Assembly: GCA_964424305.1 (NCBI GenBank)
Contig: CAYRHW010000007.1
Coordinates: 1 to 53,763 of the forward strand
DNA length: 53,763 nt
Direction of reading: 5' to 3'
Source of the DNA: an uncultured Candidatus Saccharibacteria bacterium
Lineage (GTDB): Bacteria; Patescibacteriota; Minisyncoccia; Minisyncoccales; Staskawiczbacteraceae
Under the pieces are notes generated by a model that was not told the DNA's origin, did not search any database, and saw only the letters and a program-made list of their open reading frames with translations. Each line of letters opens with the position of its first letter. Positions within the stretch are counted from its first letter, which is position 1. This document shows, one piece after another, positions 46,129-53,763 of the stretch. Position numbers and translations under genes: made by a program.

Positions 46129-47247
46129 TTAGAAAAAATAAATAAGTTCGTAAATAATTCCTAATGCAAAAATTAAAATCACGGAATACGTAAGCAATTT
46201 ACTGCTCGAGTACTCAACCCTTCTATGCATCAAAGCGATCAAGATTCCATCAACCGCGAGAGAAACTCCTCCGATAAGCCCAATGATACCAATAAAATTA
46301 TTAAATCCTGCTAGAAATAAGACAAAGGGCACAGAACAGGTCAAAATCCACGCCAATCTCTCTGACAATTTCATATCATACCATAAAACCTTCTTCAAAT
46401 TAAGGCCGACTGCAACAAAAGAAGTAAATGTTGCCAACAAACCAGCTAGGAATAAAGCACTTATTACCTTCGACCCTAAAACTCCTTGTAATCCAGAAAT
46501 GGCTTCTTGGCTCGTCTGGGCTCCAGAAATCCCCAGGACTAATAGTATAAAAAATATGAAGCAACCAGCTGATATCAGCGTACTTATGGTTATCACCATA
46601 TGCAATTTCTTCTTATCATCCCCCAGCATCTCCTCTAGCTCGGGAATCATTGATGCGCCCCAGAGAGCGAACAACAACGGCCCATATGGTAAAAACCACG
46701 ACCCCCAATTAGACATATTAAAGGACAAACTAGTAAAGTGCCAAAAGCTGATTCCTTGAAATAAGACAACCAGAAGGGCGACAAAAAACAAACTAATTCC
46801 CCAAAACTCTATTTTAGAAATTGCTTTTGAGCCCATGTAAATATACATGGCCCCAACGATGAAATATATAAGGGGGAATAAAATATCACTCCCACCCATT
46901 ATTGGCTTTAACAAGCCACCAAGAAATCCACCACCGACAATAGTATAAACCAACAATGTTCCAACGGATCCTAAAATGGCAGAGACGACAGCTATTGTTT
47001 TCCACACCTTACCCAAATGCATTTTTGCATAGCCCGGTAGGCGCAGAAAATCTGGAGTTTTCAAGGCAACATCGCAATACATATAATTTACCAGTAGAAC
47101 CATGGCGGTGATGATAATCAAATACAAAACCATTGTCCACAGTCCAACCTGCAGCGCGATATATGGCAAAGCAAAAATACCGACGCCGATAATAAGACCA
47201 GTCAAAGTCGCTACAGCTAAAATAATTTTCTTGATATCTTTCACCAT
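46129..47247 (-). CDS. Aromatic amino acid permease family transporter
   Basis: GLIIGVGIFALP, ATFTSF; many TMs. Confidence 0.88.
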   Translation of the reverse strand: MVKDIKKIILAVATLTGLIIGVGIFALPYIALQVGLWTMVLYLIIITAMVLLVNYMYCDVALKTPDFLRLPGYAKMHLGKVWKTIAVVSAILGSVGTLLVYTIVGGGFLGGLLKPIMGGSDILFPLIYFIVGAMYIYMGSKAISKIEFWGISLFFVALLVVLFQGISFWHFTSLSFNMSNWGSWFLPYGPLLFALWGASMIPELEEMLGDDKKKLHMVITISTLISAGCFIFFILLVLGISGAQTSQEAISGLQGVLGSKVISALFLAGLLATFTSFVAVGLNLKKVLWYDMKLSERLAWILTCSVPFVLFLAGFNNFIGIIGLIGGVSLAVDGILIALMHRRVEYSSSKLLTYSVILIFALGIIYELIYFF

Positions 47248-47337
47248 GTAATTAATATATTCTACCAAAAAATCGCCGTGAAAGCGATTATATCTTATCT
47301 ACCAGCGAGAAATGAAAAACGCCGACATGGATCGGCG

Positions 47338-47919
47338 TCAAAAACGTTTCTCAGAACGGAAAACTTTACAGTAAAGAGCGAATGCTTCCTCAGACATCTC
47401 TTCATGTGCAAGCTTTATTTCCTTTGCAAGGGCTGAATAGTGAACGATTTGCTTATTCAAAATCACGTATAGCATCCTCAGTGCAGCAACGGTCGATTGG
47501 TCATTGTCATCAATAACCACAAAGGGCCCATCGGAATAATACATTGCTACTAAGTACTTAGCATCGTCCAAAAATGATTCAAAAGTATTCTCTGGTTTTT
47601 CTGCACTAGTAAAAACCTTCCCCTCACAGTATTCATGATAAACCGTATAGCGCAGATATGGGTCACGACCTGTGACAAAAATTATGGGAACCAGTCTTTT
47701 GATTTTGAATAAGTTGAACAATCTTCTCACAACACAGACATGACCCTTTGATAAACTACCGGTTAACCAAAAGTATACAAAGGTGGGCAATTTAATGTAC
47801 TTAATTTGTACGCCACGGACAACCTCAAGTCGCCTTGGCAGAATCCACCATAATGATATTGAAATAAAATTAGAAAGTTCTTTGTATAACCTCCTAAAAA
47901 GTTTTACTATCCACTTCAT
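47338..47919 (-). CDS. Hypothetical protein with HExxE...H putative metal motif
   Basis: SD AAGGAG; YHEYCEG and distal VHYSALAKE; terminator at about 47314-47338. Confidence 0.7.
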   Translation of the reverse strand: MKWIVKLFRRLYKELSNFISISLWWILPRRLEVVRGVQIKYIKLPTFVYFWLTGSLSKGHVCVVRRLFNLFKIKRLVPIIFVTGRDPYLRYTVYHEYCEGKVFTSAEKPENTFESFLDDAKYLVAMYYSDGPFVVIDDNDQSTVAALRMLYVILNKQIVHYSALAKEIKLAHEEMSEEAFALYCKVFRSEKRF

Positions 47920-48373
47920 TGCCCTCTCCTTTATAGCCCAGATTTCCTATTAATAACGTGTAAAAAGGACTATCAGCAGTATACGTCTTTGGCCCTGCTC
48001 CCGTCAACAAGTCAGAAAAACAATAAAAATGGAGCACTTCCCGGGGGTCGTGCTCCTTTGCCAGTTTGGGATTTTTCACCCGATTCACGAGACGACTGGC
48101 TCGCCCATGGTCGAAGACCATCTGTTGTTTTCCATCTCTGGACGGTATGAATCCGTTCTTTGGGGGAACAACAGCAATTCCCAAAAAGCAACTGTGTGGT
48201 CGCGCATCTATTCCCACCGGTCTACGGGCATCAACGCGACAGTTACTTTCAAAGAACGTTGTCCACAACTCGCATAGGTTGCCCTTATTAACCCGGATAG
48301 GGACCCATCGTGGACTGCTCAGGCCGGGAATTACCGGGTACGTCTGCGGCGTTTGTGTTTCGCCACGGCACAC
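47894..48373 (-). CDS. Hypothetical protein, start uncertain (possible frameshift)
   Basis: Overlaps downstream gene start; the well-spaced SD serves a different frame (see findings). Confidence 0.5.
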   Translation of the reverse strand: MCRGETQTPQTYPVIPGLSSPRWVPIRVNKGNLCELWTTFFESNCRVDARRPVGIDARPHSCFLGIAVVPPKNGFIPSRDGKQQMVFDHGRASRLVNRVKNPKLAKEHDPREVLHFYCFSDLLTGAGPKTYTADSPFYTLLIGNLGYKGEGNEVDSKTF

Positions 48374-48470
48374 CTCCTTTCTTCATATTAAATAACTTTA
48401 TAAAAAAAGCACCTTAATGTAAAGGTGCTTTTTTACATGGAAAAAGCGCTAACCTTTTGAGAAAGCGCTC

Positions 48471-50060
48471 TTATGTGAAAATTCTTTTATCTCGGCTTGC
48501 TATAAGCCTTTTTTTCATTATCTCATTCCGACAGAAAACATCTAGGTTGTATAGGAAAACTCGGTAGGGTTTTTGTTCCCTGAGTATCTGCTGAATGTCC
48601 CAAGACTCAAAGGGGCATGCGACAGAAAATGGGATCACTCTACCCTTGGTTAAAACATTAAAGTTCGAAGAAGAATTTCCCGAAGGATTTGGATGTACGT
48701 CCAAACAAGTCATAGTCCCCCGCTCCTTCTGGGCTATTTGTCTTTCAAACCGTAATGCTTCCTCCGCCGTTTCAAATAATTCTACTCTCGGGTTCTCGTT
48801 GCCAACCATTTCCCCAACCACGTACTCTGGGACACCCAATGCCTGAGAAAGAAGGGCAAAAAGCTGATGGTCCTGCATTTCCAGCAGGTTATCTTTTGTT
48901 AGAATCCCGTCTTCGTACAAGAAACGAGCAATTTGCGTCAGGTACCCAGCTTCGGCAAACCTTGCAGCAGCATTAAAATACAGCGCCTTAAACATTAGAG
49001 CCCGAATTCGTAAAAAATCAGCCAACCTCTCGGCGTCCGTAAGGACCAACTGCCCGTCGACAACCCTAGCGCATTCCCATACCGAACATGGGGAGGGGTT
49101 AGCATTAAGAAGCGAGATCATTCGGTCGTAAATCATCGGAAAATTGAGCCAAAAATCTTCTCCTCTGCGATTTTTGCAAATAAACATCCACAAATCCCGC
49201 CCTGTATATGATATCTTATCCGCTAAATCAAGGATCCTACCCAGGAGACCCTTTCCCAAAACGGTATCGACCATTTTTTGTTCAGAAAGTCCGTAACGAT
49301 CACGAAAGTTCTCCCACCCAGGGCGACGAAAAACTTCCCGATAATTAGCGTCTTCATCCAAGCCGATTGGGTCAATCCGCTTAATCGCGTCTCCACCGGC
49401 TGGAGTCATCACGTCGTGAGTGAAGCCACATATTTTCAATGTAGCTAAGTCATTCTTTGAAAGTTGGCAATTAGTTCCGATTAAAACACTAACGGCGCAT
49501 GTATCCAAAGAGTGTTCAAACCGAGTATTCCTAAACGGTTGTGGGCACACTTTAATTGGGCTATCATTGACCGTTGGATCCGTTAAACCAGAAAGCTGCC
49601 TAATGCCAGAAAGTCTTGGAACTCCAAATATTCTGCTTATATCAAAAACATCTTCATCCTCTAGAACCACGTAACCAAACCCCGCATAGGGAAGCTGGGG
49701 AACAATTACATATTGATCGAAAGATTGTCCATGAATAGCGAGTTGGAACTCAAGGAAACGGACGAACTCTCTGGGAATGCGTGAAAGCCACTCCGGAGAG
49801 GATCCTGTGTCCCTAATTCTTACATACACATCGACAAGCACCTGCACGTGCGCCATCGATCGGAACATACTGGTCTCAGCATCGCCAGAAATTTCATTAA
49901 TCCCGAATCCATTAAGATATGACTTAAACCATTCCTGGGATCCAAGCCATTCACCAAAAACATGGATGCTCTCGTTATCAAAATCTTTTGATCTAAAGAA
50001 TATCAAATCCCCAACCCTGACAGAGCAGGGATTTATGTCTAACGATCTTAGGATAATCAT
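48471..50060 (-). CDS. HD-domain phosphohydrolase, SAMHD1/dGTPase-like
   Basis: RLSGIRQLS, TRFEHS, HD, DLADKISY, LY; SD GGAAGGAG. Confidence 0.88.
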   Translation of the reverse strand: MIILRSLDINPCSVRVGDLIFFRSKDFDNESIHVFGEWLGSQEWFKSYLNGFGINEISGDAETSMFRSMAHVQVLVDVYVRIRDTGSSPEWLSRIPREFVRFLEFQLAIHGQSFDQYVIVPQLPYAGFGYVVLEDEDVFDISRIFGVPRLSGIRQLSGLTDPTVNDSPIKVCPQPFRNTRFEHSLDTCAVSVLIGTNCQLSKNDLATLKICGFTHDVMTPAGGDAIKRIDPIGLDEDANYREVFRRPGWENFRDRYGLSEQKMVDTVLGKGLLGRILDLADKISYTGRDLWMFICKNRRGEDFWLNFPMIYDRMISLLNANPSPCSVWECARVVDGQLVLTDAERLADFLRIRALMFKALYFNAAARFAEAGYLTQIARFLYEDGILTKDNLLEMQDHQLFALLSQALGVPEYVVGEMVGNENPRVELFETAEEALRFERQIAQKERGTMTCLDVHPNPSGNSSSNFNVLTKGRVIPFSVACPFESWDIQQILREQKPYRVFLYNLDVFCRNEIMKKRLIASRDKRIFT

Positions 50061-50300
50061 CTCTGCTCCTTCCTGTGTTGTCTGTTGTATTTCAAAGGAC
50101 TTTCAATGTTAGATGCGCACACTAAACATTACAACACTATTCAGAAAAATCAAGTTGATTAGATTAACACAGATTCCATCACGCCACGCCTAGCCCCATC
50201 TAGCTAAAGACCGCTTTAGCTAAAAAGTGGTTTTTTGAAAATGCGCTTCCCTGGAATTGATATTTGCATAGATAAGTATTACATTTAAATAGATTATATT

Positions 50301-51200
50301 ATGAATGAAGGATCACGAGCAGAAGAAAACTCGCCAGAAATTAGAATGGATATAAGGGGAGAAGACATCCATCCCGAAATACCAGAAAATGGAGGGACGG
50401 TTTTGGTTTTACAGAGAAATGCAAGAGACGATAGAAGCGATCCTAGTTCCCCAGAGTATGGTGCTTTGGTGCCAGAAGCCGCAGAAGAGGCAGAGAAAAC
50501 GGCAGAAAATTTCTTTAATGAAATTTTTGACGACCTTAGCGAAGACGAAAAAGGAAAAGTCGCTATAATTGTTTTTGCTAGCGATGCGGCCCTTACTACG
50601 CCCTCTGGCGCAAACAGCCTTCATAAAAGAGCCTTTGAAACGGGAGAAAGGGTTTTGGGGGGAATAAAAGAATCAATGGCTCGGAACGGTATCTCGCCAA
50701 AGCAGTTGCTCAATAACTCTCCCTCGGGTAAGGGCGAACCAGTCGGAGCGACTGGCTTGGTGGATCTAACAATGTTTAAAGAATCTCCAGCGTTCGTTAA
50801 ACATATGCTTGAAAAGTACGGGCCTGATAAGGAATTTTGGCTGGAATATGAAGACGACACCGAGATAGACGCAAGAGAGAAATTGGGAGCCGAAGGACCA
50901 GTCGAGATAGCAATTAGGATGCGAGAGGCACTAACGCGTTTAACTCAGGATGTTGCTACAAGCTACCACAAATCCAATCCCGACTCGTTATTATATATCT
51001 GGGCAGTCAGTCATTATGATTCCATAAGCCCCTGGCTAAAGGGGTATGTTTACCAAGCAGACCCTACAAAGCTATATGCACCCGTAGAACAGGGTGGCGG
51101 CATAACCATAAAGATTGATAAAGAAAATAAAAGCGCCGAAACTACAATCGGCGGCGAAACCTTCAAAATTCCCTCTCTTTTGGCTAAGCCTAAAAAATAA
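50301..51200 (+). CDS. Histidine-phosphatase-fold protein lacking the catalytic His
   Basis: LVLQRNA (RHG-like), RAFET, AVSHYD. Confidence 0.6.
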   Translation: MNEGSRAEENSPEIRMDIRGEDIHPEIPENGGTVLVLQRNARDDRSDPSSPEYGALVPEAAEEAEKTAENFFNEIFDDLSEDEKGKVAIIVFASDAALTTPSGANSLHKRAFETGERVLGGIKESMARNGISPKQLLNNSPSGKGEPVGATGLVDLTMFKESPAFVKHMLEKYGPDKEFWLEYEDDTEIDAREKLGAEGPVEIAIRMREALTRLTQDVATSYHKSNPDSLLYIWAVSHYDSISPWLKGYVYQADPTKLYAPVEQGGGITIKIDKENKSAETTIGGETFKIPSLLAKPKK

Positions 51201-51764
51201 CTATTTTTCCGAAGCCGTTAAGTAATTGACGGCTTTTTCGATAGAATCGAATTTTGGTACTCCCTTTTTTCTCCAAGCTAATATTTGTTTTCGATGTGCC
51301 TTAAGTTGAGCTAATGATTTTGGGTCAGACTTGGCTCCTCCATCATAGTTTAATTCCCTCTTTTTTATGAGATTAACATGCGCCTTCCATTTCGGGATAA
51401 CAATGGCGTCGGGCTTAAGCCAATTGCACGAAGCCCCCATCATCCAAAACCCCAATTTGCGAGCTTGCAGAGTGATTATGTCACATTGTTGATCCACTTG
51501 ATCTATCAATTCTACTTTTTCCCACCATGCCCCTTTCGGCATTGCTTTTGCCCAACGCCAAAGACGGTCAGCGTCAATCCAATTTTGCTTTCCCTCCTTC
51601 TGATTTTTACAAAAGTATGTTTTGCCAGAACCAGATGGTGCAAACACAAAAAAACCTTTTTTGTGAGATATATACTCCTCCGCTAATTTTTTATAAAATT
51701 CGGTTCCATCTGTAAATATAAGCGGCGTCTCTGGATCTAATAAATTATCTTGGTCTTGAAGCAT
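51201..51764 (-). CDS. Small P-loop NTPase, nucleoside/nucleotide-kinase-like
   Basis: APSGSGKT, WIDAD, KKR lid. Confidence 0.75.
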   Translation of the reverse strand: MLQDQDNLLDPETPLIFTDGTEFYKKLAEEYISHKKGFFVFAPSGSGKTYFCKNQKEGKQNWIDADRLWRWAKAMPKGAWWEKVELIDQVDQQCDIITLQARKLGFWMMGASCNWLKPDAIVIPKWKAHVNLIKKRELNYDGGAKSDPKSLAQLKAHRKQILAWRKKGVPKFDSIEKAVNYLTASEK

Positions 51765-51768
51765 ACTT

Positions 51769-52323
51769 TTATTTTTTAATATTATTGGTCAACTCCTTTT
51801 TTATTTGTAAATACTCTAAACGAACGTCGTCAGCCCTCTTTAGCATCGCCTCCTTGTCCCAGATATATGGGTTATAATCATCACCCTCTATTACTCTATC
51901 AATTTCAGCAGGTTTTAAGAAACTCTCTGTTACCACTTCAATTGATCTTCCATCATCTGTAATCGCATTGCCGTACGCCCTCTCCTGGCATCCAAAATCT
52001 ACTAGTTCCCAATTTTCAACAAGCTCCAACTCCTCTGGGGTAATATACCAGATGGTCCCATAAGCCACCCCCTTGGGATTTGGTCTTGACGTGAACATCT
52101 CAAATTCTGTTCCCCATCCGCTTAAAATGAGATCCTTCGCAGATTTTGTAGGGTTTGGACTAGTTAGAGGAATTTCATTCCTGAATTGGCTAGCCTTTTG
52201 AATTGTGATTTCATAACCAATAAGCTTGGCGTGCTCCCCCTTTATACTCTTGCGACCTATCATGTGCTCCATCATCTCTGGGTCGCGATTAGTTCCAAAA
52301 CCAAAATAGTTTATTGTTTCCAT
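51769..52323 (-). CDS. Gamma-glutamylcyclotransferase (AIG2-like) family protein
   Basis: YFGFGTN, AKLIGY, AYGTIW.ITPEEL..V..WE. Confidence 0.75.
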   Translation of the reverse strand: METINYFGFGTNRDPEMMEHMIGRKSIKGEHAKLIGYEITIQKASQFRNEIPLTSPNPTKSAKDLILSGWGTEFEMFTSRPNPKGVAYGTIWYITPEELELVENWELVDFGCQERAYGNAITDDGRSIEVVTESFLKPAEIDRVIEGDDYNPYIWDKEAMLKRADDVRLEYLQIKKELTNNIKK

Positions 52324-52457
52324 GTTTATTATTTTACCACAGAGCAAAGACTGACTAAATAGTAACTTTATTTCTGGAATGCTTTATCCCTTGGAAAATG
52401 ACCCTATCTCAGAAGTGATAAAAAAACAGACACTTTTTAGGTGTCTGTTCTCTAAAG

Positions 52458-52533
52458 CGCCGCCTGTGGGATTTGAACCCACGGTCTTCTCGTTGAGAAC
52501 GAGACGTCCTAAGCCGGGCTAGACGAAGGCGGC
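52458..52533 (-). tRNA. tRNA-Glu(CTC)
   Basis: Acceptor GCCGCCT/AGGCGGC, anticodon arm TCTCG-TTCTCAA-CGAGA, T-arm GTGGG-TTCAAAT-CCCAC; terminator downstream at about 52420-52450. Confidence 0.97.
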
Positions 52534-52541
52534 ATATATAA

Positions 52542-53210
52542 TTAATTTTCAGATAAAGCTAGAACAAACCCCTTAAGCCTGCAAAGATTTTTCGTGTCAC
52601 AGATTCTAATTCTTAGTGTTCCTTTATAAAGAACATTATGCATCTTTCCAGTACTACTTTTCGGTGGTTTCACATAAACCTTATTAAATTGAGAGAGTGG
52701 AACCCCAGCAAGAGAAGACCAATAGTTTAAAGCCTCTTCTTTGTTTAGTCCTGGGTGCAAAATTAATCCACATTTAAATTTACTTTCCTCAATATTTAAT
52801 ATCTCCCGGAAAAATCTCATCATTAGCAGTATGGCTGCTGGGTCAGAATTGACAAACTCAATCGCGTTTCTTTCTCTCTTGCTTCCTTCCCCCCAAAACA
52901 GAGCGGACCCAGCAATAGTTAAATCTCTCTTATCTATTTTACCAATTTCTTTTTTACCCTCCAAAATAGTCCTACGTGCATTCTCAATTGCTTCCTGGTG
53001 TTTTCTTTCATTATATCTGATAAATTTTACCTGCCCCTTCAGTTTCTCATTTAATATTCTTTTTTCTTGTTCATTGGTGAGGGCGATATCCTCCACCCAC
53101 CTACTTATCGTCCCCTTAGCCAAAAATGGAAACTTTGTCAAAATCTCTTTAAAAGTACGGCCATCGCCCCTAAGTTCTCTTACATTTTTTCTAACGGCCG
53201 GTTCATACAT
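52542..53210 (-). CDS. HTH plus LAGLIDADG-like protein
   Basis: N-terminal LR..G.T..EI...KGTISRW; GSALFWGEGSK, FVNSD, YWS...GVP..QF. Confidence 0.8.
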   Translation of the reverse strand: MYEPAVRKNVRELRGDGRTFKEILTKFPFLAKGTISRWVEDIALTNEQEKRILNEKLKGQVKFIRYNERKHQEAIENARRTILEGKKEIGKIDKRDLTIAGSALFWGEGSKRERNAIEFVNSDPAAILLMMRFFREILNIEESKFKCGLILHPGLNKEEALNYWSSLAGVPLSQFNKVYVKPPKSSTGKMHNVLYKGTLRIRICDTKNLCRLKGFVLALSEN

Positions 53211-53297
53211 GTTTTTTTAATTTATCATAATAATTTCCTTTTGTCGATAAAAGAAAACCACCCTTGGGGGGTGGTATTTTGTAAAAAGGCCTAAGCC

Positions 53298-53474
53298 CTA
53301 GCACATGTCAAGCTTGTCGCCCTTGATAATCGGCAGAAAACCGCCGTGTACCTCAGAACAATACATCGGAGGAGTCTCTTCGCCCAGACCACTCCAATTA
53401 TTCCGGATCTTTCTCCTTGGTCTTCTCGGTCTCAAAATCCGACTCTTCCTACGTGTCCTTCTGCTTCTCAGCAT
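53298..53474 (-). CDS. Arg-rich small protein (58 aa, not in the ORF track)
   Basis: MLRSRRTRRKSRILRPRRPRRKIRNNWSGLGEETPPMYCSEVHGGFLPIIKGDKLDMC; SD AGGAAGGAG; terminator at about 53249-53280. Confidence 0.7.
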   Translation of the reverse strand: MLRSRRTRRKSRILRPRRPRRKIRNNWSGLGEETPPMYCSEVHGGFLPIIKGDKLDMC

Positions 53475-53535
53475 GGCACAACTCCTTCCTTGGTTTCCCG
53501 ACGTTTAGAATTGTTAACGAGCCGCTTTGACCAAC

Positions 53536-53666
53536 AAAAAGCCGATCCTTTAGAGATCGGCTGAGTTTTCACTATTGTCCTCTTATTCTTTAAAAACTCA
53601 GCCCATCTCTTGATCGGCAGATTTAATAATGACTACGAATAAGCTGTTTGTTATTGCTCTTTGCAT
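53536..53666 (-). promoter_or_regulatory. Leader-peptide transcription attenuator
   Basis: Leader MQRAITNSLFVVIIKSADQEMG (53598-53666); mutually exclusive 16/17-bp antiterminator and GCCGATC/GATCGGC-T5 terminator. Confidence 0.7.
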
Positions 53667-53763
53667 CGTATTACAGTGATGACGCGGTAGAACTTAATCT
53701 ATTACACATCGTATTAAATCATCTAAAATCTGACTATACGGGTATCAGTTAAATCATCGGATT

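Follow-up and report, generated by a model that had tools for sequence, protein, structure and literature searches.

What does a short open reading frame (ORF) with a run of Val and Ile codons do in front of a terminator hairpin in a bacterium that probably can make neither amino acid? The question is raised by one end of a 53,763-nucleotide (nt) contig (C7) of an uncultured Candidatus Saccharibacteria bacterium, whose 672-kb genome consists of nine contigs and is 95% complete. The whole contig was analysed and is referred to below as the window. A preliminary description, made from the letters alone, had read the locus, which lies on the minus strand 97–230 nt from the contig end, as a classical four-segment attenuator with a Val/Ile leader peptide controlling a non-biosynthetic gene in a probable auxotroph. 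Our analysis suggests, with a probability of about 0.62, that it is a ribosome-mediated (leader-peptide) transcription attenuator, for which shortage of charged Ile/Val-tRNA would be the likeliest signal and a downstream ORF of 58 amino acids (aa) the gene switched on.

Elements of the switch and their predicted pairings

The leader ORF (53598..53666; like all features of the switch, on the minus strand) consists of 22 codons and a UGA stop (MQRAITNSLFVVIIKSADQEMG). It has no Shine–Dalgarno (SD) sequence, and homologous ORFs occur in two metagenome contigs (L082 and L075) and in the genome G128. As had been described, it contains a Val/Ile run and ends inside segment 2 with the stop codon at 53600-53598. 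The Val-Val-Ile-Ile codons GTA GTC ATT ATT (53625..53636), which follow directly after Leu-Phe and keep their position in the relatives, are the proposed regulatory codons; in a post-hoc test, an Ile/Val run of at least four was expected in 0.8% of stretches of 21 random residues of the genome's composition. An AAA Lys codon (53622..53624), present in all 13 members of the alignment used below, stands between the hydrophobic run and segment 1 (GCCGATC, 53612..53618), which corresponds to leader codons 17–19 and can pair with segment 4 or, weakly, with segment 2. Segment 2 (AGAGATGGGCTGAGTTTT, 53593..53610), which contains the leader stop, is separated by a loop (53570..53592, from RNA folding) from segment 3 (AAAACTCAGCCGATCTCT, 53552..53569). 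The latter can pair with segment 2 to form the antiterminator core or, by its 3′ half, with segment 4 (GATCGGC, 53541-53547). Segment 4 and the U-tract TTTTTGTT (53533-53540) directly 3′ of it would form an intrinsic terminator, the whole element spanning 53533..53547.

An inverted-repeat search found the 2:3 arms to be 18 nt long and 94% complementary, and the 3:4 hairpin (AGCCGATC/GATCGGCT) has eight perfect pairs, or a stem of 8–9 bp overall, followed by the U-tract. This hairpin was also called by the terminator scan, which found four terminator-like sites against 1.0 expected from shuffled sequences. The antiterminator and the terminator of the preliminary description were thus both recovered. 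Helix energies were −9.8 kcal/mol for 1:2, −27.7 kcal/mol for 2:3, and −14.1 kcal/mol for 3:4. What the earlier four-segment account had overlooked, although its elements are all present, is the pairing of segment 1 with segment 4, whose complementarity is perfect (7/7). The minimum-energy fold of the free RNA is a single long hairpin composed of 1:4 and 2:3 (−38.9 kcal/mol), and the U-tract comes immediately after it. Since segment 1 pairs with segment 4, the untranslated RNA is predicted to be one long terminator hairpin, not 1:2 plus 3:4, so that it would also terminate. The 201-nt region folded at −53.2 kcal/mol (z = −3.29), and none of 200 shuffled sequences folded as well. The Rfam covariance models, among them those of the Thr_leader, His_leader, Trp_leader, and T-box families, gave no match within 53474-53700 at E values up to 10, and matched only tRNA and, at chance level, other sites elsewhere in the window. 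A 34-codon ORF that begins with GTG in the 2:3 loop behind an SD-like AAGAGGA was considered as well and rejected, as it is not kept in L082 or L075.

Distribution of homologous copies

When 40 relatives were searched at the DNA level with a 514-nt query, only the upstream module described below was matched, apart from one 19-nt match at chance level in the attenuator part. Scanning metagenome contigs for the inner 2:3 arms recovered, besides the window's own sequence (L072), two true relatives: L082 and L075 (78% identity over 122 nt). The leaders of these two (MERAFVINSVVVIKTDHKMG and MERAFIINSVVVIKTDHKMG) retain the start and stop codons as well as the Val/Ile run and the Lys codon, their indels comprise whole codons, and the outer part of the 2:3 helix differs from that of the window by two compensatory double changes (AGAGAU:AUCUCU vs CAAGAU:AUCUUG). 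A covariance model (R1) built from the three sequences matched 10 other genomes of the 78 in the family. Five of these matches (G009, G089, G084, G057, and G078, the last with insertions) were real on inspection, each comprising a leader and four segments, while those at L088, L091, L092, L093, and L094 were rejected as plain terminators or as lying inside an ORF. When applied to a sample of the order, R1 matched 12 of 150 genomes, 11 of them with a leader ORF; in a class sample of 150 genomes a second model, R2, gave one weak match only, to a plain terminator. The element is therefore sporadic, found in about one genome in twelve within one order.

Two copies have been rearranged. In G218 (L103:1501-1623) the 3′ end of a tRNA gene has taken the place of the 5′ half with the leader, leaving a remnant whose C-terminal leader codons (..GDQEMG) match the leader of the window. 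In G078 (L089:1210-1400), a long perfect palindrome resembling a miniature inverted-repeat transposable element is inserted between the attenuator and a zinc-ribbon gene, and a second insertion parts the Ile-rich leader from its hairpins.

Covariation of the alternative helices

Pairs were counted on a 13-member alignment (A6), from which G089, G084, G201, G128, G057, G078, and G218 were left out as disrupted copies or as having different stems that MAFFT could not align. The long hairpin (1:4 + 2:3) was paired in 88.6% of the cells, and 10 pairs (30 cells) were changed on both sides; no shuffle of 500 scored as high and slid controls reached 25–55%. The competing 3:4 hairpin was paired in 92.3% of the cells with five pairs (12 cells) changed on both sides, against 15–47% in the slid controls and, again, 0 of 500 shuffles as high. 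Covariation, proposed as a check in the preliminary description, was thus detected both for the fold that contains 2:3 and for the hairpin that excludes it. The 1:2 hairpin of that description does exist in the window, but it is weak, and only 67% of its cells were paired in the alignment. The terminator (GC-rich stem and U-tract) is kept in all 13 members, and in each of them 2:3 is more stable than 3:4 (−15 to −31 versus −6 to −15 kcal/mol), with 1:4 closing the full fold.

The sequence of segment 1 is identical to that of the 3′ half of segment 3, and this identity has been maintained via covarying changes in all four segments (e.g., GCC/GGC versus GCU/AGC). As a plain hairpin would not need it, this points to alternative structures. 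G–U pairs are frequent in the structure, which therefore appears to be specific to the RNA made from the minus strand. Taken together, the comparative evidence supports a leader-controlled choice between terminator and antiterminator.

Conservation of the leader ORF and its promoter-like motifs

An ATG ORF of 17–31 codons that ends inside the structure was found in 16 of 17 copies, in 13 cases at the same UGA in segment 2, and G128 has a longer leader-like ORF of 46 codons. Under shuffled composition the chance of an open frame is 0.11–0.37 per copy. With its frame kept open in all but one of the 17 copies, the ORF is unlikely to lie on a terminator by chance, and the other check proposed at the outset, that of leader conservation, favours a genuine leader. 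Leader ORFs of 19–23 codons differ in length by whole codons. When leaders of four different families were compared over their first 13 codons, 2–4 synonymous, 1–5 conservative, and 0–2 radical changes were seen, and the pattern ME.LIS[KR].Y...K was kept across all four. Likewise, AITNS..LFV.II is common to the leaders of the window and of G128 despite five synonymous codon differences. We infer from these substitution patterns that the leader is translated.

Upstream of the leader, a promoter-like motif, TGTAAT-N16-CGTC (53681..53706, minus strand), is shared with a paralogous site on contig C3 and with eight relatives; the leader AUG lies 14 nt beyond the end of its CGTC. The consensus TGTAAY-N16-CGTC occurs in 9 of the 17 copies and at the C3 site, and other copies have a TTGACA/TATAAT-type promoter. 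In each copy read, a motif of one or the other type ends 5–20 nt before the AUG, thus the mRNA would be leaderless or nearly so if transcription starts where these motifs predict. Across the genome, TGTAAY-N16-17-CGTC was not enriched (four found versus 8.45 expected). The motif presumably resembles the promoters of extracytoplasmic function sigma factors, a likeness that we treat as a lead. At C3:94359-95953 of G000 (L002), GTAATA-N17-CGTCATCACTGTAAT stands directly before a DUF5667 gene, the start codon of which overlaps the end of the motif. The DUF5667 family often accompanies sigma factors.

Proposed mechanism and ribosome-mask folding

In the mechanism that we propose, transcription would start a few bases 5′ of the SD-less AUG, at a site predicted from the conserved promoter-like motif, and the 22-codon leader would be translated while RNA polymerase makes segments 1–4. 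Without a ribosome, the 2:3 helix closed by 1:4 would form the long hairpin ending at the U-tract and transcription would terminate. A ribosome that reaches the UGA would cover segment 2, allowing 3:4 to form, and termination would follow again. A ribosome held at the end of Leu-Phe-Val-Val-Ile-Ile (A site at about codons 14–17) would cover segment 1 and leave segment 2 free; in this stalled state alone, 2:3 would form with segment 4 unpaired, and the polymerase would read through into the 58-aa ORF. The stall would most likely be caused by too little charged tRNA-Ile and tRNA-Val in a cell unable to make Ile and Val. The auxotrophy suggested earlier is consistent with the gene content, as IlvD and ketol-acid reductoisomerase (IlvC) were searched for in the 95%-complete genome and neither was found. 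Since the genome has neither enzyme, the switch cannot feed back on Ile/Val synthesis. The transcription start, the translation of the leader, the nature of the stall signal and the production of a functional protein from the 58-aa ORF are the presumptive parts of this scheme.

The scheme was modelled by folding each RNA with a 28-nt ribosome mask shifted codon by codon, which gives a thermodynamic and not a kinetic picture. The stem adjoining the U-tract formed in the free RNA and at nearly all ribosome positions. Segment 4 was freed only with the A site at the last hydrophobic codon, at the AAA codon or at the next one or two codons, and this was seen in 11 of 12 members. The release window was clear in most of the 11 members other than the window's own copy.

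Several observations weigh against this interpretation. In the mask model, segment 4 remained paired in G009, one of the 12 members, wherever the ribosome was placed, and the release in the window was only partial (3–4 of the 7 nt of segment 4 were still paired) and spanned I14, K15, S16, and A17 instead of the two Val codons. No copy has a Shine–Dalgarno sequence before the leader AUG, and the −10-like stretch of the window reads CATCAC where the relatives have CATAAT. The leaders in other families of the order are conserved as peptides and contain mixed Tyr/Phe/Ile/Leu runs instead of one amino acid; a pure codon counter would not need such peptide conservation. Moreover, an auxotroph gains no obvious feedback from sensing Ile and Val, and neither of the two genomes of the same genus yielded the element. 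As for the target, the 58-aa ORF is an orphan that finds only itself among 5.8 billion proteins, and its frame differs from that of the ORF in L082 over homologous DNA.

Codon runs in related leaders

The hydrophobic run differs from copy to copy: LFVVII in the window, VVVI, SIILITLVSIL, IIINIII, and LFFFF elsewhere, with Y-F-I-F-like mixes in other families. The leader of G057 (MKNVACAKNWFYFSFFKKEVGLNVLN) lies ahead of a gene for 3-deoxy-D-arabino-heptulosonate 7-phosphate (DAHP) synthase (PF00793, 5.8e-73). DAHP synthase genes are present in 7 of 79 family genomes, and six of these loci were read (labels L110-L114 and L090; G071 was left out). In G044 only 88 nt of the contig precede the gene; at each of the five loci where the upstream DNA could be read (G013, G087, G081, G082, and G057), a promoter is followed by an SD-less ORF that contains a run of Phe/Tyr/Trp codons, and the four-segment design is present. 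The mask model placed the release window on or beside the aromatic codons at four of the five, the RNA folded for G057 having been too short. By their sequence, these DAHP-synthase leaders look like classical aromatic attenuators. The leaders of G089 (Ile run) and G084 (Phe run) have an MNQ start in common with them, as if the run had been swapped between the two groups. As the leader design is conserved and aromatic runs precede DAHP synthase, ribosome-sensed attenuation appears to be used in this lineage, and the occurrence of codon-run attenuation with a matched target in the family favours the sensing of charged tRNA-Ile/Val in the window.

The downstream target

The 58-aa ORF (53298..53474, minus strand) is preceded by a strong Shine–Dalgarno sequence, GGAAGGAG (53482..53489), that is conserved in L082 and L075. 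As stated in the preliminary description, it is the sole ORF before the next terminator (ACCACCCCCCAAGGGTGG and a T-run, 53249..53275), which would end the unit, and its product is not biosynthetic as far as its sequence tells; no promoter-like site was called between the attenuator terminator and this ORF. The encoded protein has an Arg-rich N-terminus. No Pfam, PHROG or NCBIfam family and no Atlas match was found for it. In the window, L082, and L075, an ORF fills the space from the Shine–Dalgarno sequence to the conserved terminator, and the three proteins have only a short C-terminal motif in common, 12 C-terminal residues matching between the window and L075 (E 0.006). The BLASTP comparison with L089 was not significant (E 0.69). 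Given these two results, we do not claim the 58-aa ORF as a zinc-ribbon relative. A tandem duplication of about 41 nt (53413-53498, minus strand) in the 5′ part of the gene spans its Shine–Dalgarno and start region. An SD-like AGGAAGAG is retained in the second unit of this duplication, where an in-frame TTG occupies the position corresponding to the GTG start codon of the L082 ORF.

Among 20 copies scanned, 17 have an SD-led ORF of at least 30 aa that starts within 420 nt downstream. As for the other three, G128 has none, in G103 the contig ends, and in G084 the real start fell outside the SD filter. Elsewhere the first or second downstream ORF usually encodes a basic protein of 45–70 aa with two CxxC motifs, whose zinc-ribbon matches are generic and sub-threshold. 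The downstream proteins of G089 and G078 are 46% identical, and their family comprises 14 clusters in 1.8 billion representatives. Scanning the downstream ORFs of the window and its relatives gave no Pfam family above cut-off save DAHP synthase and a borderline GCS2 at the cut-off. The small-ORF unit is followed, at L082:1750-1940 and at the same place in L075, by conserved non-coding DNA that appears to be structured (gagggtaagagg...ccctctc) and then by a terminator.

Alternative explanations

The leader could also work as an attenuator in which the ribosome is stalled by the nascent peptide together with a small molecule or translation inhibitor, in the manner of erm, mef/mel, and ABC-F leaders. 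The conserved peptides speak for it, both the pattern kept with few radical changes in the leaders of four families and the stretch common to the window and G128 in spite of synonymous codon differences, as do the mixed composition of most hydrophobic runs and targets that are not biosynthetic. Transcription attenuation of macrolide-inducible genes is moreover on record (PMC4335068). This explanation accounts poorly for the single-amino-acid runs (IIINIII, FFFF, VVV) in the window's own family and for the aromatic runs before DAHP synthase at 5/5 readable loci, which are the signature of charged-tRNA sensing. Furthermore, no resistance-type gene (methyltransferase, ABC-F, efflux) was found downstream of any copy examined, and we consider an arrest peptide unlikely. 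Another possibility is that a chance ORF overlaps either a common intrinsic terminator belonging to an upstream unit or a DNA site that is palindromic. The window ends 97 nt upstream of the leader, thus an upstream gene is not in view, and in L082 a 295-aa gene does end 41 nt before the leader; in addition, a long inverted repeat with a small palindrome in its arm automatically yields 1:2, 2:3, 3:4, and 1:4. Such a coincidence would not explain why the ORF is open and in frame in nearly all copies, why it has a promoter-like motif or a TTGACA/TATAAT promoter immediately ahead of it in the copies read, why the identity between segment 1 and the 3′ half of segment 3 is maintained by covarying changes, or why G–U pairs make the structure strand-specific. 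This makes the plain terminator highly improbable.

It is also conceivable that the locus serves mainly to make the short terminated RNA of about 135 nt and/or the 22-aa peptide, which would act in trans, and that control of the 58-aa ORF is secondary or has been lost. Termination would be the default in all scenarios but one, and the A-rich 5′ end of the RNA (GCAAAGAGC) can pair with the 3′ U-tract (GCUUUUUG), with one C–G to G–C exchange between the window and L082. The 58-aa ORF, an orphan with a duplicated start region and a frame that is not kept in L082, and G128, in which a leader-like ORF and hairpin are followed by no SD-led ORF within 420 nt, also fit such a product. Attenuator RNAs and leader peptides that act in trans have been recorded in Sinorhizobium (PMC7968998, PMC7298713). 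A stable small RNA would, however, not need the competing 3:4 hairpin, which is conserved and covarying, and an SD-led ORF is present downstream in 17 of the 20 copies scanned. A function mainly in trans is quite unlikely in our estimate, and the ribosome-mediated attenuator responding to Ile/Val-tRNA shortage is the reading retained here.

The upstream module and the genomic neighbourhood

The last 55 nt of the window (53709..53763, minus strand), upstream of the attenuator, are the end of a non-coding module and an exact copy of the C3 contig end, a repeat that explains why the window's contig stops at this point; similarity to the C3 end continues to 53670. The module is about 150 nt long, consists of a hairpin and two tandem units of about 35 nt ending in TAATACG, and is found in many Patescibacteria. 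Its parts are a promoter-like TTGACT..TAAAAT, the hairpin AAAATGA(A/G)GT..ACTCATTTT, and then the tandem units. Across genera it is 88–94% identical (sites include L072:1653-1759, the C3 end of G000, and L020-L066), and in most of 47 loci fetched the −35 box of a different gene's promoter follows it after 3–6 nt. It is multi-copy, with seven copies in G020, four in G019, and two here, and breaks contigs in some genomes. The module had no Rfam match in the relatives. It may be a mobile promoter-upstream cassette, a protein-binding array or an RNA gene. A gene end, an insertion sequence element, and an array like those of clustered regularly interspaced short palindromic repeats were rejected for the 55-nt repeat, since inspection by eye revealed stop codons in every frame and neither spacers nor a nearby transposase. 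The depth of the Logan contigs (DNA) was about 4x at the module, and these contigs suggest that the repeat is at least 1.3 kb long and that two copies lie further upstream, missing from the assembly.

On the other side, the order on the minus strand 3′ of the attenuator is the 58-aa ORF, the terminator, a 222-aa ORF, and tRNA-Glu(CUC). The 222-aa ORF (52542-53210, minus strand), which stands directly before the tRNA gene (52457-52533, minus strand), has no family in Pfam, PHROGs or NCBIfam, and none of the five ORFs past it (47338-52347) has a family above cut-off. The ORF at 46129-47268 weakly matches an aromatic amino-acid transporter. This end of the contig looks like a variable, accessory region.

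Comparison with known systems

Leader-peptide attenuation is a textbook device. To our knowledge, it has been described for amino-acid-making organisms and almost always before the matching biosynthetic genes, and a full-text literature search, within the text it could access, found no paper linking leader peptides or attenuation with Patescibacteria. The sequence comparisons presented here support a ribosome-sensed attenuator that belongs to an unreported family, is built with two terminators, and has as its target a micro-protein outside biosynthesis. If this is right, such switches would provide a direct read-out of the nutrients that limit uncultivated symbionts and a set of starvation-induced micro-proteins for study, and the 1:4 clamp would be a design variant that terminates in every state but the stalled one. 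A broader extension, possible but doubtful, is that Patescibacteria may carry portable amino-acid-specific leader switches on retained biosynthetic genes and on tiny basic or zinc-ribbon proteins, induced when a host-supplied amino acid becomes limiting. Were it true, attenuators and micro-proteins would constitute an amino-acid-by-amino-acid starvation response, which could replace or supplement the stringent response where the amino acid cannot be made.

The classical attenuators include the enterobacterial trp, his, phe, thr, leu, ilvGMEDA, and ilvBN leaders and the actinobacterial and staphylococcal ilv leaders. The window resembles them in having a short ORF whose putative regulatory codons lie just before or in segment 1 and whose stop lies in segment 2, mutually exclusive 2:3 and 3:4 helices, a U-tract terminator, and a predicted default of termination both without translation and with unhindered translation; its Val/Ile/Leu mix is reminiscent of the ilv leaders in particular. 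In contrast to the classical systems, it has no sequence homology to them (no Rfam match at E up to 10), its untranslated state would be held by 1:4 and 2:3 instead of a stable 1:2 hairpin, and its leader has no Shine–Dalgarno sequence and little or no predicted 5′ untranslated region. The gene regulated would be a tiny orphan, or elsewhere a zinc-ribbon ORF, instead of a biosynthetic operon; unlike the ilv attenuators, the switch of the window controls no branched-chain synthesis genes, and the host is an auxotroph of the Patescibacteria (candidate phyla radiation).

With the DAHP-synthase leaders of the family, the locus has in common the promoter, the SD-less short ORF, the four segments with 1:4 closure, the U-tract, and the SD-led gene. 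The Phe/Tyr/Trp run of those leaders precedes the first enzyme of aromatic synthesis, a match of cause and effect, whereas nothing is known to connect the window's target with Val or Ile. As in the antibiotic-responsive attenuators (erm, mef/mel, ABC-F), a leader ORF would govern a terminator before a non-biosynthetic gene and the hydrophobic peptide is conserved; unlike those systems, it has no resistance gene downstream, and its relatives show amino-acid-specific runs. T-box riboswitches likewise respond, by a choice between terminator and antiterminator, to how much of one amino acid is available for translation, but the window has neither a T-box sequence nor a specifier structure that Rfam recognizes, and its sensing would proceed via the ribosome and not via binding of tRNA to the RNA. 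The same logic as in the textbook attenuators would thus operate in an ultra-small bacterium unable to make Ile or Val, while the sister switches in its relatives use other codon runs.

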